DNA of 63,991 nt, filler included, from a bacterium (lineage in GTDB: Bacteria; UBA9089; CG2-30-40-21; SBAY01), in NCBI GenBank assembly GCA_040757115.1. It is 6 parts of 6 records of this genome, joined end to end, with 100 filler letters (N's around TTAATTAATTAA, not from the genome) between each part and the next. Parts side by side here need not be neighbours in the genome. Positions count along the whole stretch, not along the records: positions 1 to 30,697 come from JBFLYA010000020.1; 5 more parts are not named here. One strand, written 5' to 3'. The first letter of the stretch is position 1, and every line of letters begins with the position of its first letter. A model generated the notes under the pieces. The model saw only the letters and a program-made list of their open reading frames with translations. It was not told the origin of the DNA and made no database searches. Below are positions 4,952 to 28,795 of this stretch, in pieces. The position numbers and the translations under genes are program-made.

Positions 4952-5237
4952 GTAAGGGTTCAGGTAGGATAAAAATAAGGAGAAAGGGAGAAGATGGAGA
5001 AGTGGAGAAAAGAAGAGTTAAGTGATAGGATTATTAATGCCTGTATTAATGTCCATAAAAAGTTATGACCTGGTTTTCTGGAGAGCATCTATCACAATGC
5101 CTTGAAGGTTGAGTTTGCAAGACACAGGATTGATGTCCGAAGGGTGGAGCAAGAAAAAGTTTGAGCCATTTCTCCAATTCTCCCTTTTCCCCATTTCTCC
5201 TTGTTTACACTTCTAATGTATAGCCCTGAACGGTTAC
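4952..5237. mobile_element. MITE-like element (GTAA..TTCAGG ends) carrying a GxxExxY pseudogene
   Basis: Ends GTAAGGGTTCAGG / CCTGAACGGTTAC; purine-rich and pyrimidine-rich complementary arms. Confidence 0.65.
4994..5164 (+). pseudogene. GxxExxY protein remnant
   Basis: EELSDRIINACINVHKKL*PGFLESIYHNALKVEF; in-frame TGA at 5066; most of the C-terminal part deleted. Confidence 0.8.
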
Positions 5238-5251
5238 AGATTATTATAAAA

Positions 5252-6031: not shown

Positions 6032-6207
6032 AAAATAACGAGCTGTTTGATCTCGCCAGAAGGCTTGTAAAACTTAATGAAGAAGCAAAGAAACCTGGAA
6101 TATTTACAGGTGACCGCGAGTTGCTTGAATGCCCAAAGAACAGAGAAAATATCTTTTCCTGCCCTAATTGTGGGGAAGTTATTGCATTAGAGGAGGAAAA
6201 TGAATGA
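6028..6207 (+). CDS. Small Cys-containing protein (possibly internally deleted)
   Basis: ATGA overlaps with both neighbours; LLECPK and CPNCG motifs. Confidence 0.5.
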   Translation: MKNNELFDLARRLVKLNEEAKKPGIFTGDRELLECPKNRENIFSCPNCGEVIALEEENE

Positions 6208-9200: not shown

Positions 9201-9443
9201 GAAGATGAGGAGTATATTCGGCAAGTTTTGAAAGGATATGAAGATGGTGTTATCCCGCAGAATACTACCAAAAGGATCAAGAAGGCAATCGAGGAAGAGA
9301 CAAATCCTCTTAAGGTTTTAGCTGTATTCAAGAAAAATATTCCATATAATATTCTGAGCTTGACTAAAGCACCTCAACCGCAAGTGTTGGCTAAAAGAGA
9401 GGTTATTTTATCTGAATACTTAACTAAAGGGACTAAAAGATAA
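6204..9443 (+). CDS. PLD-like nuclease domain + SNF2-type helicase
   Basis: IHAKVYI and GSSNFS (PLD); LADVVGLGKT, DEAH, SATP, EGINL, QRVGRVNR helicase motifs. Confidence 0.9.
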   Translation: MSTDTTFFTNEPGATLLDRFKKILKDVQYLDVLVGYFRTSGFHQLYQSLEGIEKIRILVGLNMDRKAYEIIETARFQGKLDFESHSKTKHLFVEHTISEMEGSEDSYQTEIGIKKFVEFLTTDCPNKEQDINHGGNGKKLEFRVYPSENIHAKVYISRFHKDALDFGRVVTGSSNFSESGFVANREFNVELKDKADVEFALNQFEQLWKDSIDISQDYIETIQKKTWPNEDISPYHIYLKMLYEYLKEDINLDQEIDLHLPEGFLDLMYQKQAVLSAKKVLEAYHGVFLADVVGLGKTYISALLAQQLPGGKLIICPPVLEDYWKETFFDFGISKFRVESVGKLDHILKKGIEKYDYIFVDEAHRFRNEYTQGFEKLHQICFGKKVILVSATPLNNTFGDIYSQLKLFQIPKKSTIPGVPNLERFFKNLMDNLKNYDKSDPEYLEVLKDWSGRIREQVLKYVMVRRTRMEISKYFSDDIDKRGLFFPEVEEPKRIIYRFDERITTVFNQTIGLLKVFKYSRYTPLLYLKRELSEFDKQRERNIGGFMKGILVKRLESSFDAFRKTLERFVESYKKFIDMFNKGTVLISKKVNVYDLLNEDNEEKILQLIEEEKVDKYDSGEFRPEFIKYLKADWELLKQIRNLWEEVDSDPKLEAFIKRLHGELKDKKIIVFTESKETGDYLHKNLNRHFPGKVLFYCSAGGLLSDRRKTTSLARELIKENFDPTHSVKNDEVRILLSTDVLAEGINLHRSNIIINYDLPWNPTKVLQRVGRVNRVGTEHKNICIFNFFPTDQSEEHIGLEANIKAKIQAFHDTLGEDTKYLTEEEIPASHELFGDTLYKKLTSKKTYQAEEEERSELEYLNFIRDIRDHQPELFEKIKHLPKKARSAREDDVKTEQLVTFFRKGKLKKFFITDSEESQEITFFEAVDLFRCKPDTPRQKIPKQYYPMLDKNKTQFDLVTSGEMLESKGSGRQGGRSNESYVIRRLKVKEFQQYQGFTDEDEEYIRQVLKGYEDGVIPQNTTKRIKKAIEEETNPLKVLAVFKKNIPYNILSLTKAPQPQVLAKREVILSEYLTKGTKR

Positions 9444-9445
9444 CT

Positions 9446-12400: not shown

Positions 12401-12904
12401 TGGACTGGTGAGTATCTCAAATATGGAAACAACTTGGCTGCACCACGGAAAGACTTCCGACTTTATTCCACCAGCAGAATCCTTGTGCGCCAGATTCCAG
12501 CTAAACCTCCATACTGTATCCACGCCTGCTTGATTGAAGAAACCGCTTTGAATGATCTCAACTCCATGAACATCATCAACATTCGAGAATCACCTGAGTG
12601 CGTGCTGGGTATCCTAAATTCTCGTCTCACATCTTTCTGGTTTATCCACAAGTTTGGCAAGATGCAGCGGGGAACTTTTCCGCAATTCAAAGTTAATGAA
12701 CTTGCTGACTTTCCCTTGCCGAAAAACCGGGCAGAGCGGAGTGACGAGATTGCTAAGCTGGTTTCCCAAATTCTCTCCCTAAAAAAATCCGACCCGCAGG
12801 CAGACACCAGGGCATTGGAGGCAGAGATTGACCGTCTGGTGTATGACCTCTATGGATTGACAGAGGAAGAGATTGCTATTGTGGAGGGGAGTGTTAGGAG
12901 GTAA
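9446..12904 (+). CDS. Eco57I/type IIG-like N6-adenine DNA methyltransferase with TaqI-C-like specificity domain
   Basis: GAYYTP, DPAIGSGAF, GFDVVIANPPY; C-terminal EIDRLVYDLYGLTEEEI. Confidence 0.9.
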   Translation: MDRQTAINLIANTFNHPFNEDKFRHFIRNLLNDVDESGNFEYYGRYIPDSFKEHIRKYKRVGKYADPKGKELDVIIVHLKRETALDRARTMQRNFIAWYLKNRGEKDAAVVAYHTDTPDDWRFSYVRVEYKQETTESGKVKVKEELTPARRYSFLVGKNEPTHTAQQQLISIFQDDRLNPSLADLEKAFSVEAVTRQFYEDYKGLYEKLTQELNSLMEEDGRIKKEFETKSIDTANFAKKLLGQIVFLYFLQKKGWLGVGKNNEGSFKPWGTGQKNFLRLLFEKQFINYHNFFNDVLEPLFYEALATERANDFYSPFNCKIPFLNGGLFEPINEYDWQQTDIFINHELFTEIFDTFDRYNFTVREDEPLEKEVAVDPEMLGKVFENLLPENLRKGQGAYYTPREIVHYMCQESLINYLDTAVNTGEVSLAQTPPTQGKLFGKPDPEQMVLKTTGYKPLVPREDIEEFIRKGEFAVEHDIAKEKGTKTYKYQVPESIRKNAKLLDDKLTAIKICDPAIGSGAFPVGMMHEIVKARNVLTTYIEDSKERSADKFKRHCIQESLYGVDIDPGAIEIAKLRLWLSLMVDEDDYYAIKPLPNLDYKIMQGNSLIEDFHGISLNIEKKEESQGSLFDMDSELDRLIEDLHHKQNALFNATHPSDKKEQKEEVENAIVKIFHYELQRQKEPYFRELKNIKESARRFKEEEQQKIYDIEKVKLDKKYNFDFETVENELREMTHGNKVRNFFPWKLYFADVFRQKGGFDVVIANPPYIFARESKKKGLSNEDKGYFYEHYELAEYQVNLYPLFIEKGTYLLRANGCFCFITPNNWLTINTNRRLRKFVLGQSDITIVNFYARVFESAAVDSAIIIFRKSVDNRHVALYEYTDDFRFIKEAECGFFLSHRNHVINIEAFKGGGISEVMEKIERGSVKLAQVADVKAGLKAYEIGKGNPPQTNEMKTDRVYHSTRKIDNSYIKYLDGKDVCRYYLDWTGEYLKYGNNLAAPRKDFRLYSTSRILVRQIPAKPPYCIHACLIEETALNDLNSMNIINIRESPECVLGILNSRLTSFWFIHKFGKMQRGTFPQFKVNELADFPLPKNRAERSDEIAKLVSQILSLKKSDPQADTRALEAEIDRLVYDLYGLTEEEIAIVEGSVRR

Positions 12905-13153
12905 ATTCTGTAAGGAGAAACCCAACTTTTGCCATTTTTTATTGCTTTTTGGCAATACTTTTGTTATACTTCTATAGAGTTATTCTGAAATCAAATCTTC
13001 TGTCATTTGTTGAGGACTAAAATGGATAGCCAATTTGAAGATTTAAACATAGATACTAAACGAACAGCGAATAAATCGACGAAATCCAAAAACTCATTAA
13101 AATCTTTGAAGTAAAAATCAAAGACAACATCCAAGAAGTTTGGGGGTGTAACT

Positions 13154-14458
13154 ATGGAAACATCATGGAATAGTAAACATATTCTAAAGGTTCAAGATGA
13201 CCGTGAGCCAAATATAGTGGAAGAGCCAGATATCAAAAAACATCGGCAGCGTGTTGAACCATGGCTAACAGCTCTCTTCCAAAGCGATCATCTTTCTTTA
13301 TTGGTGGGGTCAGGACTTTCATTAGCTGTTCATAAGCTTGCTACAGGGAATTCTGGTGAGGGGATGGCGAAAATAGCATTCTCTGTTTTTAAGGAACAAA
13401 TGGATACCTGTGTTGTTGAGGCAGCCAGAAAAGCTGGACGAGGGAATGGGAACATTGAAGATCAGATACGTGTTGCTAATGATTTATTGCAAGGATTGGA
13501 AATATATACATCAACAGGTGTGTTCGGCTCAAAAAAGATTAAAAAAGAAATGGGGAAATTCAAAGAAGAAATTAATTCAGGATTGTTTGAATTTGTAAAA
13601 AGAATTCTTCAGACAGAAAAAAATATTGTGAATGCATCTAACCCTAAAGCTGCTGAATACTTGTTGAACTTTATGGTTAGTTTTGCTAGTCGATCTGGCA
13701 CGCGAGAACGTTTAAACATTTTTACTATTAATTATGATCGTGTAGTCGAATTTGGTGCAGAGTTAGCAGGTATTCGTTTGATTGATCGGTTTGTTGGAAC
13801 GGTAAATCCCATTTTTCATTCGTCACGCTTAGAGATCGATATGCATTACAATCCCCCTGGTATTCGTGGAGAACCACGCTATCTAGAAGGAGTCGTACAT
13901 TTTGCGAAGTTGCATGGCTCTTTAGATTGGGTTTATCAAAATGGAAATGTCAGACGCATATCAGTGCCTTTTGGGGCTGAAACAGTTGAATCGTATTTTA
14001 CTTTGTTGGATGGAGAAAAGCCTAATGCACAGTCATTAATGATTTATCCTAATGCATCAAAAGATCGTGAAACCTCTGAATATCCATATGTTGAGCTTTT
14101 TCGAGATTTGGCTGCAGCCATTTGCCGTCCTAACTCAACTGTGATATTGTATGGATATGGCTTTGGCGATGACCATGTTAATCGTGTTATTAAGGATATG
14201 CTAACAATACCGTCTAGTCATCTTGTTGTTATTTCTTATAATGATGAGGGCGATAGAATTCAAAGATTCTATGATGATGCAAAACGGCCAGCACAAACAA
14301 CGCTTCTAATTGGTGAACATTTTGGGAATTTAAAAACACTCGTTGATGGTTATCTTCCTAAGCCAGCGATTGATCGAACTACTTTTCGTATGGTTGATCT
14401 TCTCAAGTCAAGAGGGGTTATTGTTGACGAGCATAAAGAAAAGGAAGGTGAACAATGA
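13154..14458 (+). CDS. SIR2-like protein of a SIR2-HerA anti-phage system
   Basis: LLVGSGLS, FTINYD, KLHGSLDW, GYGFGDDHVN. Confidence 0.9.
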   Translation: METSWNSKHILKVQDDREPNIVEEPDIKKHRQRVEPWLTALFQSDHLSLLVGSGLSLAVHKLATGNSGEGMAKIAFSVFKEQMDTCVVEAARKAGRGNGNIEDQIRVANDLLQGLEIYTSTGVFGSKKIKKEMGKFKEEINSGLFEFVKRILQTEKNIVNASNPKAAEYLLNFMVSFASRSGTRERLNIFTINYDRVVEFGAELAGIRLIDRFVGTVNPIFHSSRLEIDMHYNPPGIRGEPRYLEGVVHFAKLHGSLDWVYQNGNVRRISVPFGAETVESYFTLLDGEKPNAQSLMIYPNASKDRETSEYPYVELFRDLAAAICRPNSTVILYGYGFGDDHVNRVIKDMLTIPSSHLVVISYNDEGDRIQRFYDDAKRPAQTTLLIGEHFGNLKTLVDGYLPKPAIDRTTFRMVDLLKSRGVIVDEHKEKEGEQ

Positions 14459-16590
14459 GTTTTACTCCTATAGAATATTCTTCATCTTTGCGAATTGGAA
14501 CTGTTGAGTTTGTGGCTCCTGATGAAATAAAAGTTTCACTTGATTTAGAATCACCTGATGGGATTGCCGCAAATGCAGGAGTGCCTCGTTCATTTCCTCG
14601 CATAAATAATTATGTTATTGTTCCATCGGAGGCAGGGTATATTGTAGGGCAAATTGAATGGATCGCTGTTGAGCGTTCCCCTTTCCCAAAGCGTAAGGGT
14701 TTCCAGGATTATGGCTTGGTGGACCTCCCTTTTCCTTTACGGAAAATGCGAGTTAACCCCCTTGGTATATTAAAGGTTGATGAAGATGATAACTTTCTGT
14801 TTCGGCGTGGTGTGCAAACATTCCCCAGCATAGGCGAACCTGTGTTGATGCCTACAGATAAACAGCTTCGTGCTATTGTTGAATCCGGCGAAAAACGTAG
14901 GGTAAAGATAGGAACCAGTCCTTTAGCCGCTAATGCGGATGTGTGTATTGATCCAGATAGACTTTTTGGCCGGCATTTAGCAGTTTTAGGGAATACGGGA
15001 AGTGGGAAATCATGTTCAGTTGCTGGTTTAATCCAATGGTCGTTAGATGCAGCTAAAAAAGATGAGCGTAATCCTAATGCACGGTTTATTATACTTGACC
15101 CAAATGGTGAATACTCAAGAGTATTTAAGGATAGAGGTCGCATTTTTACAGTGAATGCGACTGATAACCCTTTACAAGTGCCGTTATGGTTTTGGAATAG
15201 TGCTGAATGGTGTTCGTTCACTCAGGCTAGCGCAAAGGCACAACGGCCGTTATTGAAAAGGGCTCTCAGGGAGATTAGAATCGGGAGGTCAGATTTGACT
15301 GTCTCAACTGAAGAGGCTCAAAAACTTGAACTCAGACGCTACCTTTCATCAAATATGATCTCTATACGAAACGACTTACAGAGTGGTGCGATAAGAACAG
15401 ATGAGTCAAAGTTTGGGTTCCGGTTAAAAGCTATTCTGAATGATTTAGATGTTAAGAAAACCGTCTTTACAACATATAATATCCAGAATATTTGCGATAA
15501 AATCAAGACGGCCTTGACTGCTACCTACAAAGAGTTCACTGAAAAGCCCACAAACAAATTAGTAGAATACTATCGTGCTTTTACTGAAGAACAAGTCAAT
15601 GATATATTAAATGCGTTGAACAATGTTTTTCAAGACCTTGGAGGAATTGTTTATCAAGAAGGCCCTGATGAAGATATTCCTATTTCTTTCTCTGGTGCTG
15701 AGTTTTCAGATCATCTTCAGAGTTTGGCTGAACAAGAGAATGTGAGCCAGTTCCTTGACTTTTTGATAATGCGGATTCGAACAATGCTTGCCGATACTCT
15801 TATGAAGAAAATCATCGGAGATGAAATTAACATTACCCTTGATAAATGGCTGGAAGATTATATTGGGAAAAATAAAGCAGAGAATGGTTGTGTTACCGTC
15901 ATTGATCTTTCTCTGGTTCCCACAGAAATTATACATATTACAATTGCAGTAATTGCTCGTATAACATTCGAAGCCTTGCAACGGTATCGAAAGCTTGAAA
16001 ACAATCCTTTGCCTACGGTAATGGTTATGGAGGAAGCTCACACATTTATTAAACGATACAAGGAAGATGTTGAAAATCAGAACACTGCTGCTATTTGTTG
16101 TCAAGTATTTGAGAAAATAGCGATGGAAGGGCGCAAATTTGGGTTAGGTTTAGTCCTATCTTCGCAACGTCCATCAGAACTTTCTTCAACAGTTCTCTCA
16201 CAGTGTAATAGTTTTCTCTTGCATCGCATTAGTAACGATCGTGATCAAGAATTGATAAATAAATTAGTGCCAGATAACCTTCGCGGATTGTTACGTGAGT
16301 TACCTTCTTTGCCCTCTCAAAATGCAATCTTATTGGGTTGGGCATCTGAACTCCCTGTCATGGTTAAGATGAATGATCTTTCCGACGAAGAAAGACCGCA
16401 CTCAGATGACCCTGATTTTTGGGATGTTTGGACTGGAGAGAATATCGAGGGAGAAAAAGTGGTTCGTGAAGTTAATTGGAAAAAGATTGCTGATGAATGG
16501 CAATGTAAGGATGCATCTACAATCGCAAAGAGTGACAAAGTGGAGGATTTGGAACAAAACACAGAGGGAATGGATGATGTACCGTTTTGA
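14455..16590 (+). CDS. HerA/DUF87 ATPase of a SIR2-HerA system
   Basis: HAS-barrel-like N-terminus, HLAVLGNTGSGKS, EEAH, EGRKFG, SQRPSE; ATGA overlap with SIR2. Confidence 0.9.
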   Translation: MSFTPIEYSSSLRIGTVEFVAPDEIKVSLDLESPDGIAANAGVPRSFPRINNYVIVPSEAGYIVGQIEWIAVERSPFPKRKGFQDYGLVDLPFPLRKMRVNPLGILKVDEDDNFLFRRGVQTFPSIGEPVLMPTDKQLRAIVESGEKRRVKIGTSPLAANADVCIDPDRLFGRHLAVLGNTGSGKSCSVAGLIQWSLDAAKKDERNPNARFIILDPNGEYSRVFKDRGRIFTVNATDNPLQVPLWFWNSAEWCSFTQASAKAQRPLLKRALREIRIGRSDLTVSTEEAQKLELRRYLSSNMISIRNDLQSGAIRTDESKFGFRLKAILNDLDVKKTVFTTYNIQNICDKIKTALTATYKEFTEKPTNKLVEYYRAFTEEQVNDILNALNNVFQDLGGIVYQEGPDEDIPISFSGAEFSDHLQSLAEQENVSQFLDFLIMRIRTMLADTLMKKIIGDEINITLDKWLEDYIGKNKAENGCVTVIDLSLVPTEIIHITIAVIARITFEALQRYRKLENNPLPTVMVMEEAHTFIKRYKEDVENQNTAAICCQVFEKIAMEGRKFGLGLVLSSQRPSELSSTVLSQCNSFLLHRISNDRDQELINKLVPDNLRGLLRELPSLPSQNAILLGWASELPVMVKMNDLSDEERPHSDDPDFWDVWTGENIEGEKVVREVNWKKIADEWQCKDASTIAKSDKVEDLEQNTEGMDDVPF

Positions 16591-16704
16591 AAATTTCAAG
16601 ACTATGATAAAGAGCCAGAATTGTAGTGCTTGACATTATCTTCTTTAATCCTGACAATCTGCGGTCATCTGCGTCCTATAAAGAGAAAGATAAGGAAGGT
16701 ATAG

Positions 16705-16863
16705 ATGCTATACTTATATCTTGATGAAAGTGGAGATTTAGGGTTTGATTTCGTGAATAAGAGACCATCAAAGTATTTCACGATAGCCATTCTTGTGGTA
16801 AAAGGATATGAAGAAAACCGATTACTGTTAAAGGTAGTAAAGAAAACTTTAAGTCGAAGATAA
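16705..16863 (+). pseudogene. DUF3800-family remnant, copy 1
   Basis: MLYLYLDESGDLGFDFVNKRPSKYFTIAIL... with AAGGAAGG RBS; 52 aa, rest deleted. Confidence 0.8.
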
Positions 16864-16887
16864 GGTATGATTCTGTTTATTTGCCAT

Positions 16888-16983
16888 AAAAAAGAGCGTG
16901 CCTTGTGGGCTTGTTGCGCTGTGGCTTTTGCCAACCGATGGATGGGAACACCACAGACAACCCACAACGGGCTTACCGCTCAA
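16888..16983 (-). ncRNA. Putative DUF3800-associated structured RNA, copy 1
   Basis: Own promoter; stems GAGCG/CGCUC, UUGUGGG-UUGU/ACAA-CCCACAA, CUGUGG/CCACAG; ends in U6. Confidence 0.65.
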
Positions 16984-16988
16984 TTAAT

Positions 16989-17017
16989 AATATACTACAT
17001 TTTGCTTCATTTGTCAA
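16989..17017 (-). promoter_or_regulatory. Sigma70 promoter for the hairpin RNA, copy 1
   Basis: Minus strand TTGACA-17 bp-TATATT. Confidence 0.75.
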
Positions 17018-17164
17018 GCACTTTTTTTTTCAAAGTCGAGTTGTCATTTGCATTACATTTTCTATCAAAAGCAGGAGCGATTAACCCATACCTCCAGAAG
17101 AAGCAATGCAATTATTAGAGAACAAAGAAACCCAAATGGTTAAATACATGATTGGAGAAACGAT

Positions 17165-17746
17165 ATGACCAAAGAACAACTCCATAAACTAATTGCCCAA
17201 GGAGAAGGGCAGCGGTTAGAGTTCAAAAAATCTGTTGCTGAATTAGATAGGATTATTCAGACTTTAGCTGCCTTTGCTAATACCAATTCCGATGGCGGAT
17301 GTGTCCTCATTGGAATAGGGGATAGGGGCAGAGTCAAAGAAGTGATAATTGGCAGAGAAACAGTAAGGCAAATAGCCAATAAAATCGCAGCTCATACTGA
17401 CCCTGTTCTTTACCCTGAGATTGAAGTGATAAAGGAATCGGGGAATAAAGGTATCATCGTAATCACCATAGATGGAAGTCCTAATAAACCCCATTTAGCC
17501 TTTGGCCGGGCATATAAAAGGGTAGGTTCTACCACCACACAAATGACCAGAGCAGAATATGAGAATCTGCTGTTAGCAAGACACAAAGATAAGTTTCAAT
17601 TTGACTCTCAGGTTTGTGAAGGAGCTGATTTAGAAGATATTGATGAAGAAAAGGTAAGGTGGTTTTTGAGAACAGCTAAGACTAAGAGAGGATTAGCGAT
17701 AGAGGAGAATGCATCTATAGCGGTTATTAACTGGAAGTTTACATAG
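17165..17746 (+). pseudogene. AlbA_2/ATP-binding protein truncated by an inserted element
   Basis: Near-identical to the N-terminus of 27380..28795; similarity ends at about 17716. Confidence 0.8.
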
Positions 17747-17990
17747 GATAATACCCATAAATAAGGCATGAGAATAATTGTTCCGTTAGGAACATAATAT
17801 CGGTAGGAATAGATAGACAAATCAATCAGTTCCGTAGGAACGATATATTGGTAGAAAATTTATGGAAAGCCATTTACCGATATATTGTCCCTATGGGACA
17901 TTATTTGTATGATATTTATTTCTACCGATATGTTGTCCCTATGGGACATTATTTGTATTTCTAAGTAAAGTTTTGAATAATAACTGCTAT
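17717..17990. mobile_element. MITE-like element with REP-like palindromes
   Basis: Ends ATAGCGGTTATT / AATAACTGCTAT; internal GTTCCGT(T)AGGAAC x2 and GTCCCTATGGGAC x2. Confidence 0.65.
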
Positions 17991-18044
17991 ATTTATCCAC
18001 CATTCATTGGATTCGTTTGCCAAAATTAAAATCAGGGATAAATT

Positions 18045-18764
18045 ATGAATAAGAAAAAGATATATCCAAAAGCAATACTTAATTGGCCGGAAGATGAGAG
18101 ACCCAGGGAAAGGCTGCTTAAATATGGCGAGCATACCCTTAGCAACTCCGAACTATTGGCAATACTTTTGCGAACAGGCGTCCAGGGCCAGAGCGCTATA
18201 GACCTGGCAAGGGAAATACTGCAAAAATTCAAGACTTTTCGTAATTTATCGCATACCGATTTGTCCCATTGGAAAGAATTCAAAGGCCTTGGCCAGGCCA
18301 AGATTGCCCAGATAAAAGCAGCCATTGAAATAGGAAGAAGATTTAGAGAAGAAATAGTAAAAGAAAAAAAGATTAAGATAAGCTCTTCAAAAACCGTGGC
18401 AGATATTTTAATGCCGAGAATGAGGGATTTAAAGAAAGAAATCTTTAAAATCTTACTCCTGAATTCACAAAATACAGTTATTGATATTGTAGAAATTACC
18501 GAAGGGACGGTTAATAAGGCAGACCCTATCATTCGAGAAATTTTCCAAAAGGCATTACAGTCTTTTGCTGTCTCTATAGTTTGTGTTCATAATCATCCCT
18601 CTGGTGATGTTTCTCCAAGCAAAGAAGACAGAGACTTTACAAGTGAGTTATGCAACGCAGGCAACATAATACAGGTAAAGGTATTAGACCACATTATTAT
18701 CGGTGATAATGAGTATTATAGTTTTGCAGATAAAGGTGAGCTTTATAAAAGGAGTTTTCAATGA
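18045..18764 (+). CDS. radC: RadC (JAB domain) protein
   Basis: RPRERLL, ELLAILLRTG, HNHPSGDVSPSKED, VLDHIIIG. Confidence 0.95.
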   Translation: MNKKKIYPKAILNWPEDERPRERLLKYGEHTLSNSELLAILLRTGVQGQSAIDLAREILQKFKTFRNLSHTDLSHWKEFKGLGQAKIAQIKAAIEIGRRFREEIVKEKKIKISSSKTVADILMPRMRDLKKEIFKILLLNSQNTVIDIVEITEGTVNKADPIIREIFQKALQSFAVSIVCVHNHPSGDVSPSKEDRDFTSELCNAGNIIQVKVLDHIIIGDNEYYSFADKGELYKRSFQ

Positions 18765-20735
18765 ATCACGCAATTCATAATGCTATAGTAAATTTTATCT
18801 GGACAATAGCAGATGATGTTCTGCGAGATGTTTATGTTCGGGGAAAATATAGAGATGTTATCCTGCCAATGACGGTCATTCGCCGTTTCGATGCAGTGTT
18901 AGAGCCTACTAAAGAAGCAGTTCTTAAAATGAAAGAACATCTTGATGCTTCCAGAATATCCAATCAGCATATTGCCTTATGCCAGGCTTCTGGACAGGCT
19001 TTTTACAACACCTCACCATTTACCCTTCGGGACTTAAAAGCCCGGGCAAAAAAGCAGCAACTGAAAGCAGACTTTGAAGCATATCTGGATGGTTTCTCTC
19101 CCAATGTGCAAGAAATCCTGGATAAGTTTAAATTTCGCAATCAGATACCGACAATGATAGAGGCTGATATCCTTGGACATGTTATTGAGAAATTTCTTGA
19201 TCCGGTAATCAATCTAAGCTCAAAGCCGGTTTATGATGCAAACGGAAATGAAAAACTTCCAGTCTTAGATAATTATGACATGGGGACGATTTTTGAAGAG
19301 TTGATTCGCCGCTTTAATGAAGAGAATAATGAAGAAGCCGGGGAGCACTTTACCCCACGAGATGTAGTTACGCTTATGGCAAATTTGGTTTTTCTTCCCG
19401 TTGCAGATAACATAGAGTCAAATACATATCTTATTTATGACGGTGCCTGCGGCACAGGCGGTATGTTGACAGTTGCAGAAAATATTCTTGCAGAATTAGC
19501 CAAAAAGCATAATAAAGATGTTTCCATCCATCTCTATGGGCAAGAAATCAATCCTGAAACCTTTGCCATCAGTAAGGCAGATCTTTTATTAAAAGGAGAA
19601 GGTGAAGAAGCGGAAAATATGAAATTTGGCTCCACCCTTTCTGCGGATGCGTTTCCATCTCTTGAATTTGACTTTATGCTCTCCAATCCTCCCTATGGCA
19701 AGAGTTGGAAGACAGATTTGGAAAGGCTTGGTGGAAAGAGAGATTTTTATGACCCACGTTTTATAATTAGCTATGCCGAGAATCCTGAATTTAGCTTGAT
19801 AACCAGATCAAGTGATGGACAACTTATGTTTTTAGTGAATAAATTAAGCAAAATGAAGCACAATACACCCTTAGGAAGCCGTATAGCTGAGGTTCATAAC
19901 GGGTCATCGCTGTTTACCGGTGACGCAGGCCAGGGAGAAAGTAATATTCGGCGATGGATTATTGAGAACGATTGGCTGGAGGCTATTATCGCTTTGCCCG
20001 AAAATATGTTCTACAATACAGGTATTGCCACTTATATCTGGGTGCTTACTAATCGCAAAGCAGAGCACCGCAAAGGTAAAATCCAACTTATTGACGCCAG
20101 GGGGGTGGTATGATTCTTTACGAAAGAATTTAGGTAAGAAGAATTGTGAATTTGCAGAAGGCCATATCCGGAAAATATGCGATTTATTGCTTTCTTTTAA
20201 AGAGACCGAGCAGTCAAAGATATTTCCTAATGAGGCATTTGGGTATTGGAAGATAGTTGTTGAACGGCCGCTTAGATTTAAAGGAATTGACCCAAATAGA
20301 GAATATAACGCTAAAGAAATCAAAGAAATGGTTACTAAAGGACTGGCTGATGAAAATGGTGTGCCTGCAATTAAAAAAATCCATAACCCCGGCAAGACTT
20401 CCGCTAATCCTTTCTATGGTCTGTTTGAAATTGAAATTGACGGTAAGAAATGTGTGGTTGAGTATGAACCAGATACATCTTTGCGCGATACAGAACAGGT
20501 GCCCCTACTTGAAGATGGCGGTATTGAAGCGTTCTTTAAGCGAGAAGTATTACCTTATGTGCCAGATGCCTGGCTTGATAGGTCAAAAACCCAGATTGGC
20601 TATGAAATCTCTTTCACCAGGTATTTTTATAAGCCACAGAATCTACGAACGCTGGACGAGATTACCGCGGACATCCGGGCACTGGAGGCCGAGTCTAAAG
20701 GATTGCTGGAGCGCATCATCAAGGAGGCAGAATAA
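18761..20735 (+). pseudogene. hsdM: Type I R-M methyltransferase subunit, frameshifted at a G6 run (20100-20105)
   Basis: AGEHFTPR, YDGACGTGGM, NPPY in 18761..20113; continuation WYDSLRKNLG...IGYEISFTRYFY in the next frame. Confidence 0.88.
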
Positions 20736-21844
20736 TGGGTAATAACATGCCGGATAGAAAATCTGATTCAAATATTCAAAAAGCTCGAGCACCTGAATCG
20801 TCGGCTATTGTTGGCGATATTCGCCGAATGATCGAAGAAACCCGTTCATCAGTTGCCTTGACTGTTAATGTCAATCTCACTATGCTCTATTGGCGGATTG
20901 GAAAACGAATTAATGAAGAGATTCTTAAGGGGGACCGTGCAGAATACGGAAAGAAAATTGTTCTATTACTATCGCAGCGGTTGGCTGAAGAATATGGCAA
21001 CAATTTTTCTGAAAAGAACTTGCGCAGAATGATGCAGTTTGCCGAAGTTTTCTCGAATGAAGGAATTGTCGTATCACTGATACGACAATTGAGTTGGACC
21101 CATTTTCTTGCCCTAATTCCTCTGAAAAAGCCGTTGCAGCGTGAATTTTATGCGGAAATGTGCCGAGTCGAACGGTGGAGCGTCCGTACCCTTCGTAAAA
21201 ATATCGATTCTATGCTTTATGAGCGCACCGCGATATCCCGCAAGCCAGAAGAATTGGTCAGTAAAGAATTGGCAAAATTACGTAATGAGGGCCACCTGTC
21301 ACCTAATATGATTCTCAAGGATCCCTATGTTCTTGATTTTCTCGGTGTCAAGGACCGTTATTACGAGAAAGACCTGGAGGACGCCATCCTGCGCGAGATG
21401 GAAGCATTCATTTTGGAACTCGGAGCAGGATTCACCTTTCTCGCCCGGCAAAAGCGAATTCAGGTCGACAATGACGATTTCTATATCGACCTACTCTTTT
21501 ATAACCGCAAGCTTTGCCGACTGGTGGCCGTTGAATTGAAGCTTGACGACTTTAAACCCGCGGACAAGGATCAGATGGAACTCTATCTTCGCTGGCTGGA
21601 AAAATACGAAAGTGAACCTAACGAAAATCCGCCACTCGGTATCATTCTGTGTGCCGGAAAAAAGCAGGAACAGATTGAACTGTTAGAACTGGGTAAGTCC
21701 GATATCCATGTGGCTGAGTATTGGACCGCACTGCCACCTAAAGAATTGATGCAGAAGAAACTCCACGCCGCGATCCAACACGCCAGGATGCGACTGGATA
21801 ATCGTATTACCGAAGATATTCCGGGAGATGGGGGTGCTGAATGA
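20735..21844 (+). CDS. DUF1016/YhcG PD-(D/E)xK nuclease
   Basis: LYWRIG, LSWTHF, KDPYVLDFL, IDLLFYNRKLCRLVAVELK. Confidence 0.9.
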   Translation: MGNNMPDRKSDSNIQKARAPESSAIVGDIRRMIEETRSSVALTVNVNLTMLYWRIGKRINEEILKGDRAEYGKKIVLLLSQRLAEEYGNNFSEKNLRRMMQFAEVFSNEGIVVSLIRQLSWTHFLALIPLKKPLQREFYAEMCRVERWSVRTLRKNIDSMLYERTAISRKPEELVSKELAKLRNEGHLSPNMILKDPYVLDFLGVKDRYYEKDLEDAILREMEAFILELGAGFTFLARQKRIQVDNDDFYIDLLFYNRKLCRLVAVELKLDDFKPADKDQMELYLRWLEKYESEPNENPPLGIILCAGKKQEQIELLELGKSDIHVAEYWTALPPKELMQKKLHAAIQHARMRLDNRITEDIPGDGGAE

Positions 21845-23190
21845 TGTTGAAAGGCTATCCTGAATATAAGGATTCCGGCCTTGCATGGCTGGGGAATATC
21901 CCTAAGCATTGGAAAGTGGGAAGACTCAAGCAAATCTGCCATTTGGCATATGGAGATTCTCTCCCTGATGATGTCCGATTGGCAGGTGAAGTACCTGTCT
22001 ACGGTTCAAATGGGCAGGTTGGTTTCCATTTATCTGCTAACACACTGTCGCCTTGCATCGTCATCGGTCGGAAAGGTTCGTTTGGAAAGGTAAATTACTC
22101 CTTCTGCCCAGTTTTCGCTATCGACACAACTTTCTTTGTGGATAGCCGCTTTACTAAAGCTGATATCCGGTGGCTCTTTTACATCCTGATATGGGCACAT
22201 CTCGATGCTGTCTCCAAAGATGCAGCAGTCCCAGGGCTCAATCGCGGTGAAGCGTATGCACAACTCATACCCTACTGTCCACAGGCAGAACAGCAACACA
22301 TTGCTAATTACCTCGATGCGAAGACTCGCCAGATTAATCGCTTCATCCGTAGCAAGCAGCAGTTGATTAATCTCCTCACCGAACAAAAACAGGCAGTTAT
22401 TAACCAGGCTGTAACTCGAGGTATTGACCCTAATGTCCGGCTTAAACCTTCAGGAATAGATTGGCTTGGGGATATTCCAGAACATTGGATAATGAAACCA
22501 CTTAAACATTGGGTTAAAATTAATACACGGGTTTTACCAGAATCAACGGATCCAAACTACGAATTTTTATATTTGGATATTAGTGCAGTATCAACTGGAT
22601 TTTTGGTAAAAGAACCGGAAAAAATGTTATTTGGTAGTTCTCCTTCAAGAGCTAGAAGAATTCTTAGCAAGGGTGATATTATCATCTCAACTGTAAGGAC
22701 TTATCTAAAAGCGATCTATTTCGTTAAGGAAGATTTGCCAAATTATATCGCATCGACTGGATTTGCTGTTTTGACTCCCAATAAAGAGATATATCCAAAG
22801 TTTCTGAGCTATGTTATTCAAAGTAGATCTTTTATTGATAGTGTGACAGCTAATTCTGTTGGTGTCGCATATCCAGCTATTGCAGAAACTAAACTAGCCA
22901 TGCTTCATCTTGCAATACCTCGAGATTTCATTGAACAACAAGCAATTGTAAAAAAAATAGAAAACGAGATATCGCCACTTGAGAAAGCCATAAATAGAGC
23001 ATTAAGAGAAATAGACCTCATCCGTGAATACCGCACCCGGCTTATTTCTGATGTAGTAACTGGTAAGATTGATGTGCGAGATATTTCGGTAGAACCAACA
23101 GAAGGGCTGGAAGGGTATGAGGAGTTAGATATGCTTGAAGAGGCTGATAAACAGGAAGAAGAAATAAAAGAAATTGAGGAGGATTTGTGA
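21841..23190 (+). CDS. hsdS: Type I R-M specificity subunit
   Basis: YPEYKDSG..WLG.IP.HW repeated; two TRDs; LISDVVTGKIDVR. Confidence 0.92.
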   Translation: MMLKGYPEYKDSGLAWLGNIPKHWKVGRLKQICHLAYGDSLPDDVRLAGEVPVYGSNGQVGFHLSANTLSPCIVIGRKGSFGKVNYSFCPVFAIDTTFFVDSRFTKADIRWLFYILIWAHLDAVSKDAAVPGLNRGEAYAQLIPYCPQAEQQHIANYLDAKTRQINRFIRSKQQLINLLTEQKQAVINQAVTRGIDPNVRLKPSGIDWLGDIPEHWIMKPLKHWVKINTRVLPESTDPNYEFLYLDISAVSTGFLVKEPEKMLFGSSPSRARRILSKGDIIISTVRTYLKAIYFVKEDLPNYIASTGFAVLTPNKEIYPKFLSYVIQSRSFIDSVTANSVGVAYPAIAETKLAMLHLAIPRDFIEQQAIVKKIENEISPLEKAINRALREIDLIREYRTRLISDVVTGKIDVRDISVEPTEGLEGYEELDMLEEADKQEEEIKEIEEDL

Positions 23191-23204
23191 AAGCCAATTA
23201 GGAA

Positions 23205-23357
23205 TCTCGCAAAGGCGCAAAGGACGCAAAGGACGCAAAGTAACAAGGATGAGACTTGGATTATTGATCAATTTCAATGTTGAATTAATTAAGGATGGGA
23301 TTTTACCATGATTGTAAAATAACTTGTAACCTTTGCGAGCTTTACGCCTTTGCGAGA
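23205..23357. repeat. Inverted-repeat-bounded GxxExxY 3' remnant
   Basis: TCTCGCAAAGGCGCAAAG / CTTTACGCCTTTGCGAGA enclosing MRLGLLINFNVELIKDGI. Confidence 0.7.
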
Positions 23358-23492
23358 AATATTAGAATAGTGATAATCGGCAAGATTGATGTTAGAGGAG
23401 AATAACAAGGATAATGAAAAACTTGCACCACTGGTGCAAGAAATTAGGTGGGCTAAAAATATTGTCATGCTTGAATTTTAAGGAGGTCAAAG

Positions 23493-26432
23493 ATGAAGAC
23501 ATCTGATACCAGTGAAAAGGGGCTTGAAAATTTAATCGTTGAGTCTTTAGTTAATGAATCTGGTTATCAACAAGGAATACCAGAAGATTATGACCGAGAG
23601 CATGCCGTTGACCTGACCAAGCTTAAGTCGTTCTTAAAGGCGTCTCAGCCAAATGTTGTTGAATCATTGGGTTTAGACGAAGAAGGTCCAAAGCAGACAC
23701 AATTTCTCCACCGGCTTCAGGGTGAAATCGCAAGACGCGGAATAATTGATGTTCTCCGTAACGGTATAAAACACGGCCCGGCATCAGTAGATTTATTCTA
23801 TGGCGCTCCTACCCCCGGCAATAAGAAAGCAGAAGAGCTCTTCAAGATGAACATTTTTAGCGTTACACGCCAGCTTCAATATAGCAGGGATGAAACTCAA
23901 TTAGCCCTTGATTTAGTAATTTTTATCAACGGTCTACCTCTTGCTACTTTTGAGCTTAAGAATAAGCTTACCAAACAGACCGTTGATGACGCCATACAGC
24001 AATACAAGGAAGACCGTAACCCCAAAGAGCTTTTGTTTTATTTTGGAAGGTGTATAGTCCATTTTGCTGTAGATGACCACGAGGTTTATATGTGCACACA
24101 CCTTAAAGGAAAATCTTCCTGGTTTTTACCATTTAATAAAGGTTACAACGATGGGGCGGGAAATCCTCCTAATCCAAATGGTATTGCTACTGATTATCTA
24201 TGGCAAGAAATCCTTAATAAAGAGAGCTTAACCGATATCATTGAAAACTACGCTCAGAGAGTGGAAGAAAATGATGAAAAAGGTAGAAAAAAACATAAAC
24301 AGATATTTCCTCGTTACCACCAACTTGATGTAGTGCGTAAACTCTTATCTGCCGCGAAAGAAGACGATGTAGGCAAGCGGTATCTTATTCAGCACTCAAC
24401 AGGAAGCGGTAAGAGTAATTCCATAGTCTGGCTTGCCCATCAGTTAATCGGCTTAAAGCACAATGACTCCGAGATATTTAATTCAGTGATTGTTGTTACT
24501 GATAGAATCATTCTTGATAGGCAAATCCGCGATACAGTCAAACAATTCACGCAGGTAGCTGCCACAGTCGGGCATGCTGAACGGGCAGGAGACCTGCGTC
24601 AGTTCTTAGCTTCTAAAAAGAAGATTATTATTACAACTGTCCAAAAATTCCCCTTTATACTTGATGAAATTGGCAATGAACATCGGGGAAGCAGATTTGC
24701 CATCATTATTGATGAGGCACATTCCAGTCAAGGGGGAAGGACATCAGCAAAAATGAATGTTGTCTTATCTGACCATACCATTGATGAAGAAGAGACAATT
24801 GAAGATAAAATTAATCAGATTATGGAATCTCGCAAGATGTTAGGCAATGCCAGTTATTTTGCTTTTACTGCAACTCCAAAGAATAAAACCCTTGAAATAT
24901 TTGGTTATTCTTTTGCAGAAGGAGATAAGGTAAAGCACCGGCCGTTTCATACCTATACAATGAAACAGGCAATCCAAGAAGGTTTTATTATTGATGTGCT
25001 TAAACATTATACACCTGTTGAAAGCTATTATAGATTAATAAAGACTGTTGAATACGACCCGGAATTCGATACCCGCAAAGCCAAAAAGAAACTCAGGAGA
25101 TATGTAGAGTCGCATAGTTATGCGATTAGAGAAAAGGCAGAAATAATGATTGACCATTTTCACGATTCTGTCCTATCCCATCATAAAATTGGTGGTCAGG
25201 CAAGGGCGATGGTTGTCACAGGTAGCATTGAGCGGGCATATCAATATTATCAGGCGTTTGTTAGCTACTTACGAGAAAGAAAAAGCCCTTATAAGGCAAT
25301 AGTGGCATTCTCTGGAGAGCATGAATTTGGAGGCTGTAGGGTTACTGAAACCTCTCTGAATGCATTTCCGAGTAAAGAGATTCCAAAGAGGTTTATTCAA
25401 AACCCTTATCGCTTTTTAATAGCTGCTGATAAATTTCAGACCGGCTATGATGAACCGCTCCTTCATACTATGTATGTTGATAAGCAACTGACAGGGATTA
25501 AGGCTGTGCAGACTCTTTCTCGGTTAAATCGGGCACACCCGCTTAAATATGATACCTTTACCCTTGATTTTATGAACGATGCCGATACAATTCAAGCGGC
25601 CTTCGCAGACTATTATCGGACAACTATCCTCAGCGAAGAAACTGATCCAAATAAATTACACGACCTTAAGGCTGCTCTTGATGCCTGACAGGTCTATAAC
25701 CCTGCTCAAGTTGAAGATGTTGTAACACTATATTTAAATGGAACAGGCAGGGAACAACTCGACCCTATACTTGATGAGTGCGTGGCTGTATATACATCTG
25801 AGTTAGATGAAGATAGCCAGGTTGATTTTAAAGGAAAGGCTAAGGCATTTGTTAGAACTTACAATTTCCTTGCCTGCATATTACCTTATACAAATGCTGA
25901 ATGGGAAAAACTATCCATATTCCTAAATTTTCTCATACCCAAGCTGCCAGCGCCGATAGAGGATGATTTCTCAAAAGGCATACTTCAAACCGTAGATATG
26001 GATAGCTATCGTGTTGAGGTGCAGGCAACTATACAGATTAAACTTCAAGATCAGAATTCTGAAATAGGTCCGGTGCCTACCAGTGGAGGTGGAGGCATAG
26101 CAGAACCAGAGATGGATTTACTAAGCAATATTATCAAAACATTTAACGACCAATTTGGCAACCTTGATTGGAAAGATAAGGATAAAATAGTTAAAGAGAT
26201 TAGTGAGGGAATTCCGGTAAAGGTTTCAGCAGATAAAGCATATCAAAACGCTATTAAGCATTCGGATAAACAGAACGCCCGCATTGAATATGACAAAGCT
26301 TTACAGCGAGTAATGACGGCATTGGTATTAGATTATACTGAATTGTTCAAACAGTTTAGCGATAACCCTTCTTTTAAGAGATGGCTTTCAGATTCAGTAT
26401 TTAATCTGACTTATGCAACAGCAAATAGATAG
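23493..26432 (+). pseudogene. hsdR: Type I R-M restriction subunit with in-frame TGA at 25686-25688
   Basis: ELKN, QHSTGSGKS, DEAH, FTATP, QTLSRLNR; 25782..26432 lies in the same frame with no other stop between. Confidence 0.88.
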
Positions 26433-26479
26433 GAAGAACAAAAAAAACTCATCGAAATCTTTGAAGCAAAAATCAAAGC

Positions 26480-26799
26480 AGTCAACTGAGATAACAAAAG
26501 CCATCACGCAGGCGACAAGATATATTTACGAAGTGGAGCGTGAGGCAAACAGCGTTAAATTCTTGGAGAGAATGGACAATGTCAAAACTATAAAGCCTCG
26601 CTGTATTTTGATATTTGGTAGATCAAATAACTGGAATGATGAGCAAAAAGAGGCATATCGCATTTTAAATTCAAGTTATCACAATTTAATGATAATGACT
26701 TATGACCATGTATTATTGAGAGCAAAGAGGATTTTAAATATTGACACACCGGAAGATTTGGAACGAAATACAGAGGGAATGGATGATGTGCCGTTTTGA
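26480..26799 (+). pseudogene. Shedu (SduA/DUF4263)-like C-terminal fragment
   Basis: EITKAITQATRY, KPRCILIFGRS, LMIMTYDHVLLRAK; N-terminal catalytic part missing. Confidence 0.7.
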
Positions 26800-26913
26800 A
26801 AATTTCAAGACTATGATAAAGAACCAGAATTGTAGTGCTTGACATCATCTTCTTTAATCCTGACAATCTGCGGTAATCTGCGTCCTATAAAGAGAAAGGT
26901 AAGGAAGGTATAG

Positions 26914-27072
26914 ATGCTATACTTATATCTTGATGAAAGTGGAGATTTAGGGTTTGATTTCGTGAATAAGAAACCATCAAAGTATTTCACGATAGCCATT
27001 CTTGTGGTAAAAGGATATGAAGAAAACCGATTACTGTTAAAGGCAGTAAAGAAAACTTTAAGTCGAAGATAA
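26914..27072 (+). pseudogene. DUF3800-family remnant, copy 2
   Basis: MLYLYLDESGDLG...; same truncation as copy 1. Confidence 0.8.
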
Positions 27073-27096
27073 GGTATGATTCTGTTTATTTGCCAT

Positions 27097-27194
27097 AAAA
27101 AAAAGAGCGTGCCTTGTGAGCTTGTTGCGCTGTGGCTTTTGCCAACCGATGGATGGGAACACCACAGACAACCCACAACGGGCTTACCGCTCAA
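27097..27194 (-). ncRNA. Putative DUF3800-associated structured RNA, copy 2
   Basis: Differs from copy 1 by about one substitution and a longer U-tract; promoter TTGACA-17-TATATT at 27200-27228 (minus). Confidence 0.65.
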
Positions 27195-27379
27195 TTAATA
27201 ATATACTACATTTTGCTTCATTTGTCAAGCACTTTTTTTCAAAGTCAAAGTCGAGTTGTCATTTGCATTACATTTTCTATCAAAAACAGGAGCGATTAAC
27301 CCAAACCTCCGGAAGAAGCGGTCCAATTATTAGAGGACAAAGAAACCCAAATGGTTAAATACATGATTGGAGAAAAGAT

Positions 27380-28795
27380 ATGACTAAAGAACAACTCTAT
27401 AAACTAATTGCTCAAGGTGAAGGGCAGCGGTTAGAGTTCAAAAAATCTGTGGCTGAATTGAACAGAATCATTCAGACCCTGGCTGCCTTTGCTAATACCA
27501 ATTCCGATGGCGGATGTGTCCTCATTGGAATAGGGGATAGTGGCAGAGTCAAAGAAGTGATAATTGGCAGAGAAACAGTAAGGCAAATAGCCAATAAAAT
27601 CGCAGCTCATACTGACCCTGTTCTTTACCCTGAGATTGAAGTGATAAAGGAATCGGGGAATAAAGGTATCATCGTAATCACCATAGATGGAAGTCCTAAT
27701 AAACCCCATTTAGCCTTTGGCCGGGCATATAAAAGGGTAGGCTCTACCACCACACAAATGACCAGGGATGAATATGAGAGGTTGTTGTTAGTAAAACATG
27801 AAAATAAGTTTCAATTCGATTCTCAGGTTTGTGAAGGATCTACCATTGAAGATATTGACGAAGAAAAGATGAAATGGTTTTTGAGAATTGCAAGAGCAAA
27901 AAGGGGGGTAACATTAAACGACGAGATCTCTGTGGAGGAATTTCTAATACATCTACAGCTTGTAAGTAAAGCTGGGTTGACTAATGCGGCAGTTATGTTG
28001 TTTGGCAAAAGTCCACATCGGTTTTTCTTGCAATCTGAAATTAAATGTATTGCTTTGCCTACTATGGAGTTTATAAAACCCTACACTACTTATCAGGCTC
28101 ATGGAGGTAATTTATTTGAACAGGCTGATAAAACATTGGCATTTATTCTTGATAATATAAAAAGACCACTATGGATTAAAGCAGGAGAAATGACAGCGAG
28201 ACACCCTTATGAAATACCTGAAGAAGCAGTACGAGAGGCAGTCGTTAATGCCATCATCCATAGAGATTATATGAGCCCTTCCAAGGTGCAAATCAGAGTA
28301 TTTCCAAACAGAGTTGAGATATGGAATCCAGGAAAGCTGCCACCTCAACTAAGCGTTGATGATCTAAGGAAACCCCATCCGTCGCTACCGTACAACCCTT
28401 TACTTTTCAGACAGTTTTATAGAGCCAGTTATGTTGAAGATGTTGGCGGTGGAACTATCGATATCATTAAGAGTTGCACGGACGCCAACTTACCGGAACC
28501 AAAATTTGAACAGAAAATGGGAAGTTTTATTCTTACAATATATCGTTCACCCTTGACAGACGAATATCTTGATAATAAGAAGCTCAGTGAGAGGCAAAAG
28601 AATTCGATTAGTCATATTGAGAAGCATGGAAAGATGGGGCGGAAAGAATATGAAGAATTATACAATGTTTCAGGAAGAACTGCTAACAGAGAATTGAATG
28701 ATTTGTCTAAGAAAGGTCTAATCAAAAAAATAGGTAGTGGCCCAGGCACATACTATGTTTTGGCGAGATATGGCGAGATATGGCGAGATAAATAA
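27380..28795 (+). CDS. AlbA_2 (Schlafen-like) + HATPase_c_4 + wHTH protein (RecG-C-terminal-like ATP-binding protein)
   Basis: GEGQRLEFK, AFANT..GG.VLIG, REAVVNAIIHRDY, EIWNPG, TANRELNDL. Confidence 0.88.
   Translation: MTKEQLYKLIAQGEGQRLEFKKSVAELNRIIQTLAAFANTNSDGGCVLIGIGDSGRVKEVIIGRETVRQIANKIAAHTDPVLYPEIEVIKESGNKGIIVITIDGSPNKPHLAFGRAYKRVGSTTTQMTRDEYERLLLVKHENKFQFDSQVCEGSTIEDIDEEKMKWFLRIARAKRGVTLNDEISVEEFLIHLQLVSKAGLTNAAVMLFGKSPHRFFLQSEIKCIALPTMEFIKPYTTYQAHGGNLFEQADKTLAFILDNIKRPLWIKAGEMTARHPYEIPEEAVREAVVNAIIHRDYMSPSKVQIRVFPNRVEIWNPGKLPPQLSVDDLRKPHPSLPYNPLLFRQFYRASYVEDVGGGTIDIIKSCTDANLPEPKFEQKMGSFILTIYRSPLTDEYLDNKKLSERQKNSISHIEKHGKMGRKEYEELYNVSGRTANRELNDLSKKGLIKKIGSGPGTYYVLARYGEIWRDK
28761..28790 (+). 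repeat. Perfect 10-bp tandem repeat x3
   Basis: TGGCGAGATA x3 at the end of the gene. Confidence 0.95.

Follow-up and report, generated by a model that had tools for sequence, protein, structure and literature searches.

Two defense modules in tandem

We analyzed a 63,991-nucleotide stretch of the bacterial genome assembly GCA_040757115.1 (GTDB lineage UBA9089; CG2-30-40-21; SBAY01), hereafter the window, in which genes of two antiphage systems, SIR2-HerA and Shedu, follow one another between similar flanking sequences. All window genes described below lie on the plus strand. In the first module, the SIR2 gene (13154..14458) overlaps by 4 nucleotides (nt) the gene for a HerA ATPase of 711 amino acids (aa; 14455..16590). 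SIR2 matched its PADLOC profile with an E value of 3.6e-161 (residues 24-431 on profile positions 29-424 of 430; Pfam SIR2_2), and HerA matched with an E value of 6.2e-265 (residues 4-683 on positions 3-684 of 686). From these profile matches, the adjacent full-length genes are predicted to form a SIR2-HerA system. The second module holds a Shedu (SduA) sequence at 26479..26799 (PADLOC SduA, E value 1.1e-46). Its 106 aa correspond roughly to residues 235-340 of a 340-aa protein, with the N-terminal ~234 residues absent (alignment A1), and they match positions 229-316 of 319 in the PADLOC profile and 52-158 of 159 in Pfam SduA_C. The enclosing open reading frame (ORF; 26413-26799, 128 codons) also covers a flanking segment described below. 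A DUF4263/PD-(D/E)xK nuclease domain with its catalytic motifs was not found in this ORF; judged from its sequence, the Shedu of the window is a homologous remnant without the catalytic core, not a working member of the family.

The two modules share sequence on both sides. On the left, a 36-bp segment at 13088-13123 recurs at 26443-26478 with 33 of 36 positions identical, which reproduces what a sequence-only reading of this DNA had reported. When up to three mismatches are allowed, these are the 2 sites in the window, against 0.00 expected from 100 shuffles. The first copy ends 30 nt before the SIR2 start, and the second ends exactly where Shedu homology begins. On the right, a direct repeat (copy R1 at 16527..17672, copy R2 at 26736..27887) was recovered as a single BLASTN alignment of 1,152 columns at 93.8% identity. 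The HerA and Shedu remnant ORFs both run into this repeat and close with a common 15-residue tail in which one position differs, also in agreement with the sequence-only reading. Each copy holds, in order, the last ~20 codons of sduA, a 115-nt spacer, a DUF3800 remnant, a DUF3800-V RNA, and the 5' part of an AlbA_2 gene (an ~85-nt leader and the first ~170 codons). Identity between R1 and R2 is a mosaic of blocks that span ~80% to ~99%: it is about 97-98% over 16547-17090, about 90% over 17094-17270, and about 99% over 17274-17526, decaying thereafter to about 17690. Repeated recombination would fit this pattern better than one clean duplication.

The shared tail and the C-terminal tip of host SSB

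The origin of the tail was sought among homologues of both proteins. A search with the Shedu remnant returned 1,170 longer relatives, and tails were read in the best 120, which were mostly 340 aa long, 70-89% identical, and drawn from many phyla. In 83 of these 120, an acidic stretch followed by [IVL]-P/L-F (strict pattern) stands at the exact C terminus. The tail is carried by 11 of the 13 homologues in alignment A1, with which the tail of the window Shedu aligns residue by residue. Such a tip was present in 11 of 119 HerA homologues, and the nearest HerA relatives (81-88% identity) end differently. Native ends of the MDDVPF type, raised by the sequence-only reading for either protein, were thus confirmed for SduA homologues but not for HerA as a family. 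One HerA relative, P0122 (91% identity), shares the tail, down to residues that are typical for Shedu ends. The PADLOC HerA profile ends at residue 683, short of the tail, and DNA identity between R1 and R2 continues across the HerA stop codon into the repeat. Taken together, these comparisons suggest that the last ~20 codons of HerA (about 16528-16590) derive from sduA. Since the tail belongs natively to this clade of Shedu, the repeat would have its left edge inside sduA, and HerA would be an in-frame chimera. From their equal lengths, we take the contig of P0122 to be the same record as a 3,608-nt contig of sequencing run X2, from a different study, which is about 90% identical to the SIR2-HerA of the window and spans 13113 to 16604. 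A chimeric HerA with a Shedu tail would then have persisted in at least two lineages. The Shedu clade itself was found at 66-91% identity across Patescibacteria, Elusimicrobia, the PVC group, Omnitrophota, Gammaproteobacteria metagenome-assembled genomes (MAGs), and archaeal MAG records (loci L058-L135, GTDB), a distribution that would imply very wide horizontal spread.

The tail resembles the C-terminal tip of single-stranded DNA-binding protein (SSB), through which genome-maintenance proteins are recruited. In Escherichia coli, this tip (DDDIPF) is an acidic peptide ending in IPF that mediates many protein contacts (PMC11981726). The window HerA and the SduA remnant both finish, at the free C terminus, with acidic residues and then [IVLM]-P-F, and the same variant, (E/D)DVPF, closes the SSBs of five related genomes (G001, G002, G004, G005, and G008). 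Among all ORFs of at least 100 aa in the DNA examined (3,430), 59 carry the tip: 33 SSBs, 24 SduAs, and the HerA and SduA remnant of the window. It was found in no other family among those ORFs.

We then compared Shedu tails with the SSB of their own hosts. Of 34 GTDB genomes with tipped Shedu, 30 gave an SSB match, and the test set comprised the 27 genomes whose SSB ORF ends in PF, compared at positions -3 to -12 with 20,000 shuffles of the pairing. SduA and own-host SSB tails were identical at 98 of 270 positions, compared with a shuffled mean of 63.8 (standard deviation 5.5, maximum 88), and no shuffle reached the observed value (0/20,000). A second pairing of 28 genomes, in which the SSB ORFs of G035 and G036 are taken in other frames and G037 is left out, gave 98 of 280, again unmatched in 20,000 shuffles. 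Position -3 alone matched in 20 of 27 pairs (197/20,000 shuffles). These shuffle counts ignore kinship among hosts and are not probabilities. Matches between tail and SSB extend to 6-9 residues in several unrelated host groups, including hosts with unusual tips. Copying of Shedu tails from ssb DNA was also considered, and no sign of it was seen: the same codon is used at 71 of 134 identical residues (24 pairs; 5 further genomes were filtered out). Matching at the level of protein and not of codons argues for selection rather than for copying of ssb DNA. From these sequence comparisons, the tail appears to be a functional motif that resembles the SSB tip and is matched to the host SSB, not a by-product of the flank.

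We searched the literature for Shedu or Sir2-HerA together with SSB, a tip motif, or a C-terminal tail and found no such tail described. In the main text of two Shedu preprints (10.1101/2023.08.10.552793 and 10.1101/2023.08.10.552762; the search covered neither supplements nor final versions), "SSB" and "acidic" occur 0 times. Prophage DUF669 proteins have been suggested to mimic the SSB tip (PMC13687109). Like SSB and these mimics, the proteins described here have an acidic run, a hydrophobic residue, P, and F at the free C terminus; unlike them, the carrier is a defense nuclease or ATPase and not a single-stranded DNA-binding protein, and the tip follows the host variant.

A slot between restriction-modification gene ends and AlbA_2

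The left flank was traced to a specificity gene. Copy 1 of the shared segment belongs to a fragment at 13088..13150, of which 59 bp are 91.5% identical to the end of a Methylase_S ORF in a genome of the same family (G005:C25), kept as far as the stop region. The fragment contains five consecutive G immediately ahead of the SIR2 start codon. In copy 2 (26439..26478), about 40 bp are kept (41 bp at 95% to G005:C25), directly after the hsdR stop and joined to the middle of sduA. No open hsdS frame was found upstream of the tail at either copy, so both are stubs. In G005:C25, by comparison, the 36-mer closes an open ORF with a Methylase_S score of 28.6 bits (cut-off, 22), and a gene for a Ppl-like PHP-ATPase, split into two ORFs, starts 4 bp after the stop of that ORF. 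At a metagenome locus, L140, the gene left of the cargo is an N6_Mtase and Methylase_S fusion. The left piece is thus best read as the conserved 3' terminus of a specificity gene of the hsdS type or of a methylase-specificity fusion gene, as the sequence-only reading had proposed. In run X2, two contigs match 13088-13146 only, with unlike DNA on both sides, and the 3,608-nt contig begins inside this tail. The junction of hsdS tail and SIR2-HerA is therefore not unique to the window.

The right flank recurs more widely. The search for the AlbA_2 5' region covered 11 genomes of the order as well as metagenome contigs, where a scan with alignment A3 gave 80 loci; a metagenome scan with a single AlbA_2 protein confirmed no relative. 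The region was found at 80-88% nucleotide identity behind many different genes. Gabija (hsdM-hsdS-GajA-GajB) lies upstream of AlbA_2 in G008:C122, a SIR2-like PDC-S65 gene lies between the fusion gene and AlbA_2 at L140, and hsdS followed by an OLD-like ATPase-TOPRIM gene precedes it at L144. A type IIG methyltransferase and then DUF1016 precede AlbA_2 at L192 and in G007:C265. Further cargo upstream of AlbA_2 in relatives includes LmuB-like, DUF4062, NucC-like, and MNT-HEPN genes. The GajB, PDC-S65, and OLD-like genes each have a stop codon of their own ahead of the AlbA_2 leader. The claim of the sequence-only reading that the right flank donates a stop codon to whichever cargo is present failed on this count and on the native occurrence of the tail in SduA. 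The hsdS tail that forms the left anchor also precedes other cargo, the Ppl-like gene of G005. Each anchor taken separately thus holds different defense systems in related genomes, and a slot of the form "restriction-modification (R-M) gene end, cargo, AlbA_2" is supported in this wider sense by the sequence comparisons. The hotspot with alternative cargo envisaged by the sequence-only reading stands in that sense, while the exact pair of flanks was not recovered outside the window. Cargo would have been exchanged by homologous recombination between the shared pieces. In the nearest genome, G001, we found no SIR2-HerA, Shedu, or repeat, and only dispersed elements.

Several features of the repeat were examined in addition. 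Across two families of the order and in metagenome contigs (loci L056, L057, and L136-L144), AlbA_2 genes keep 80-88% DNA identity over their first ~500 nt, with just 50-54% identity for the full proteins; recombination may have kept the 5' half alike. In R1, the leader (about 17081-17164) is followed by a truncated AlbA_2 gene (17165-17746, 193 aa; Pfam), and in R2 the gene continues to full length (27380-28795, 471 aa; Pfam). Copy 1 is cut short by a dispersed repeat of ~276 bp (17716..17991, strand not assigned), which matches G001 at 58 places, contains a 36-bp tandem pair (17875-17958), and reaches very high contig depth in runs X1 and X2. Its edges coincide with loose ends of X1 contigs (17714-17716 and 17991-17993), and it looks like a miniature inverted-repeat transposable element. 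X1 contigs also break at 13190-13214, 40-60 nt into SIR2, where summed depth rises from ~325 to 1,150-1,800; this suggests a stretch common to other, more abundant sequences of the X1 sample. The DUF3800 remnant (16705-16863 and 26914-27072; 52 codons; Pfam E value 2e-4) lies on the plus strand, and the DUF3800-V RNA (RF02964) follows its 3' end directly in antisense, on the minus strand (16889-16987 and 27100-27198), a layout shared with locus L040 that corrects the sequence-only reading. The RNA scored 75.9 and 73.7 bits in the two copies, above the Rfam gathering threshold of 37.4 bits, and has its DUF3800 neighbor in the window as a remnant and at L040 intact. In G002:C18, an intact 214-aa DUF3800 gene has the RNA motif antisense immediately 3', and relative to that gene R1 and R2 share one internal deletion of about 460 bp. 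The RNA region (16888-17028 and 27099-27239) is 99% identical between copies despite the deleted DUF3800 gene in both. The spacer holds a short element of ~35 nt with a doubled 7-nt core (16647-16683, within 16612-16684, and 26856-26892). Copies of this element are scattered over every one of the 11 genomes of the order, frequently paired in inverted orientation at distances of 45-190 bp, and in several metagenome contigs the element lies ~100 bp upstream of AlbA_2.

At the left edge of the island lies a further AlbA_2-family gene (5201..6031; Pfam HATPase_c_4 and HTH_24, AlbA_2 below cut-off), from which most of the N-terminal AlbA_2 domain is missing. An R-M pair then stands left of module 1 (6204..12904): a PLD and SNF2 helicase (6204-9443) and a type IIG-like methyltransferase with a TaqI_C specificity domain (9446-12904), both identified with Pfam and PADLOC. 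The same pair occurs in G007:C265, upstream of DUF1016-AlbA_2. Between the modules, a RadC gene (18045-18764) is followed by a type I R-M operon (18761-26432). It contains hsdM in two pieces (18761-20113 and 19920-20735), a DUF1016 (YhcG) gene (20735-21844), hsdS (21841-23190), and hsdR in two pieces (23493-25688 and 25782-26432). A frameshift near 19920-20113 splits hsdM and a single in-frame stop at 25686-25688 interrupts hsdR; the operon is decaying. Downstream of module 2 lie a third AlbA_2 leader with first codons (28801-28916), a second DUF1016 gene (28938-30032; Pfam), and the degenerate 5' end of a fourth AlbA_2 (29993 to about 30250); the window has four to five AlbA_2 5' ends in all. 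A similar array, in the order AlbA_2-leader-DUF1016-AlbA_2, occurs at L138, L187, and G008:C122. A weak remnant of a IIG methyltransferase 3' end at 30267-30311 (78% identical to 12840-12884 and 83% to L040 positions 3550-3591) may mark another former module. An element of ~48 nt at 30423-30470 is found twice in G005:C25 and also at L195 and L056, and a 164-nt inverted repeat with 98% complementarity and a 15-nt loop marks the right edge of the island (window 30575-30917). No recombinase, integrase, or transposase was found among the annotated ORFs of 5201-30032, smaller ORFs being outside the scan, and the locus does not qualify on those ORFs as a mobile element or integron-like cassette array.

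History of the island and possible role of the tail

We consider it probable that 5.2-30.3 kb is a recombination-shuffled, partly decayed defense island in which a chimeric HerA has acquired a Shedu tail with the character of an SSB tip. The two tandem modules would each have run from R-M genes through an hsdS-type 3' tail and a defense cargo to AlbA_2. The left anchor would be the last ~60 nt of a specificity gene, ending a few bases before the cargo start codon, with its G-run where a ribosome-binding site would be, and the right anchor would be the AlbA_2 leader and 5' half, unusually conserved DNA among relatives. From an ancestral order of R-M gene end, sduA, and DUF3800/RNA/AlbA_2 block, module 1 would have arisen when SIR2-HerA, itself normally behind an hsdS tail, replaced the body of sduA, with the joint at about 16528-16546. 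Module 2 would once have held a full Shedu, until a deletion took sduA from codon 1 to about codon 234, together with the end of the hsdS tail. The two modules may be two alleles brought together in tandem, a plausible proposal of the sequence-only reading, or may have arisen by local duplication and later replacement of one cargo.

Several observations count against this history or against the host matching on which the reading of the tail depends. No recombination event was observed, and the history is read from homology boundaries. Logan contigs of run X1 break at the repeats, with none bridging R1 or R2, so the tandem order rests on the window assembly and on the equal X1 depth of the unique pieces (314, 326, 342, and 332); in runs X3 and X4, almost nothing of the window was matched, and gaps in X2 coverage of the window carry no weight as evidence. 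Both exact flanks together were found in this window only, and the hsdS tail of G008 is of a different sequence type. The 78 GTDB Shedu loci have varied neighbors, none of which matches the hsdS, AlbA_2, or DUF3800 of the window (blastp, 1e-5). Among the 56 same-strand neighbors upstream of Shedu, a Pfam tally of R-M-type families gave ResIII 6, SWI2_SNF2 3, N6_N4_Mtase 3, and HSDR_N, T1RH-like_C, N6_Mtase, and RloB 1 each (each family counted separately, with possible overlap). At position -3, 7 of the 27 pairs of tails mismatch, and many of the hosts are Patescibacteria with similar tails, which makes independent events far fewer than 27.

Alternative accounts of the locus were weighed against these data. 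One would dispense with a hotspot: a single Shedu module was duplicated locally, SIR2-HerA entered one copy by a single illegitimate event, and the relatives reflect general clustering of defense genes. R1 and R2 are indeed mutual closest relatives with long near-identical runs, and the hsdS-tail fragment has almost the same first base in both modules (13088 and 26439-26443). We nevertheless find this account improbable, given that the same junction and the tailed HerA recur at about 90% identity in a run from a different study (P0122), the same tail precedes Ppl-like cargo in G005, and the AlbA_2 5' region of relatives has at least six further types of cargo next to it. The homology start at 13088 is also seen in the X2 contigs and fits a boundary between conserved and variable parts within hsdS genes. 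A chimeric assembly of two strains with one module each is very improbable. The repeats contain about 250 bp of near identity, where short-read assemblers can switch paths, and the missing X1 bridges are compatible with such a switch, but unique pieces on both sides have equal depth, and a path swap inside the repeat would give a deletion product and a 10.2-kb circle instead of two linear loci. An AlbA_2 5' half must, moreover, adjoin the diverged distal part of R1 (17530-17746) somewhere.

The tail has its own rival explanations. That the right flank is neutral DNA, lending a stop codon and 15 residues to any cargo that lands in the slot, accords with both ORFs reading into the same repeat. 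It is extremely improbable in light of the conservation of the tail at full-length SduA ends in many phyla, the independent stop codons of the other cargo, the match to host SSB tips, and the fact that SduA homologues with the tail do not all adjoin the same flank. It is somewhat unlikely, though a more serious contender, that the likeness to SSB has no function, the tail being a drifting, disordered acidic end whose host matching stems from common composition and ancestry. Shuffled pairings already share 24% of positions, the relatedness of hosts is uncorrected in the matching test, and codon use gives no sign of ssb copying. A functionless tail would nonetheless have to account for a motif at the exact C terminus in most of the 120 homologues read, for its confinement to SSB, SduA, and this HerA among the 3,430 ORFs, and for the long matches in unrelated host groups. 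Matching of protein but not of codons is, in addition, the product expected of selection for mimicry.

The locus invites comparison with known arrangements. Defense-island hotspots with conserved flanks and variable cargo are familiar from P2/P4 satellites and from chromosomal integration hotspots. As in those of the P2/P4 type, the same anchors hold different antiphage systems in related genomes. Unlike them, the window has no annotated integrase or transposase (5.2-30 kb), one anchor is the 3' end of a specificity or methylase gene from an R-M system and the other is the AlbA_2 5' half, and two filled versions stand in tandem. Genes embedded in or trailing R-M operons are likewise known, including prr/PrrC and the Campylobacter rlo genes. 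The cargo start codon a few bases after the hsdS stop, and ResIII upstream of 6 of 56 Shedu, recall these cases, whereas in both modules of the window all that is left of hsdS is a stub of 40-60 nt. The SIR2-HerA of the window is like other members of that family (Nezha) in its overlapping genes and full-length profile matches and unlike the usual HerA in its Shedu-derived, host-SSB-like tip. With the B. cereus and E. coli SduA proteins (PF14082), as described in the two preprints (10.1101/2023.08.10.552793 and 10.1101/2023.08.10.552762), the window shares the C-terminal region of the DUF4263 nuclease; it differs from the studied Shedu in being a 106-aa remnant and in belonging to a clade with an SSB-tip-like tail.

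The tail is the part of most interest: a putative host-matched mimic of the SSB tip on Shedu, apparently passed to HerA by recombination. We give even chances to the proposal that it links the defense protein to the network of SSB interactions or serves as a pseudo-ligand. A broader version is more tentative, a little short of an even chance. In this version, the host-matched tip would be carried by a widespread clade of Shedu and, through repeated capture, by some SIR2-HerA systems, and the defense protein would use it to dock at the host SSB-partner network in replication and repair sites, or to restrain itself until phage SSB or tip-targeting phage proteins displace it. The tip would then serve as a host-specific determinant of self and non-self, and the DNA encoding the tail as a homology arm for swapping defense genes. 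The slot adds an example of recombinase-free exchange of defense cargo, anchored on an R-M gene end and AlbA_2, and suggests that such exchange can create in-frame chimeras. Phage SSBs are reported (PMC13434337, PMC12904381) as triggers of Sir2-HerA and several other systems; given those reports, a host-matched SSB tip on Shedu and HerA would be a concrete candidate determinant.

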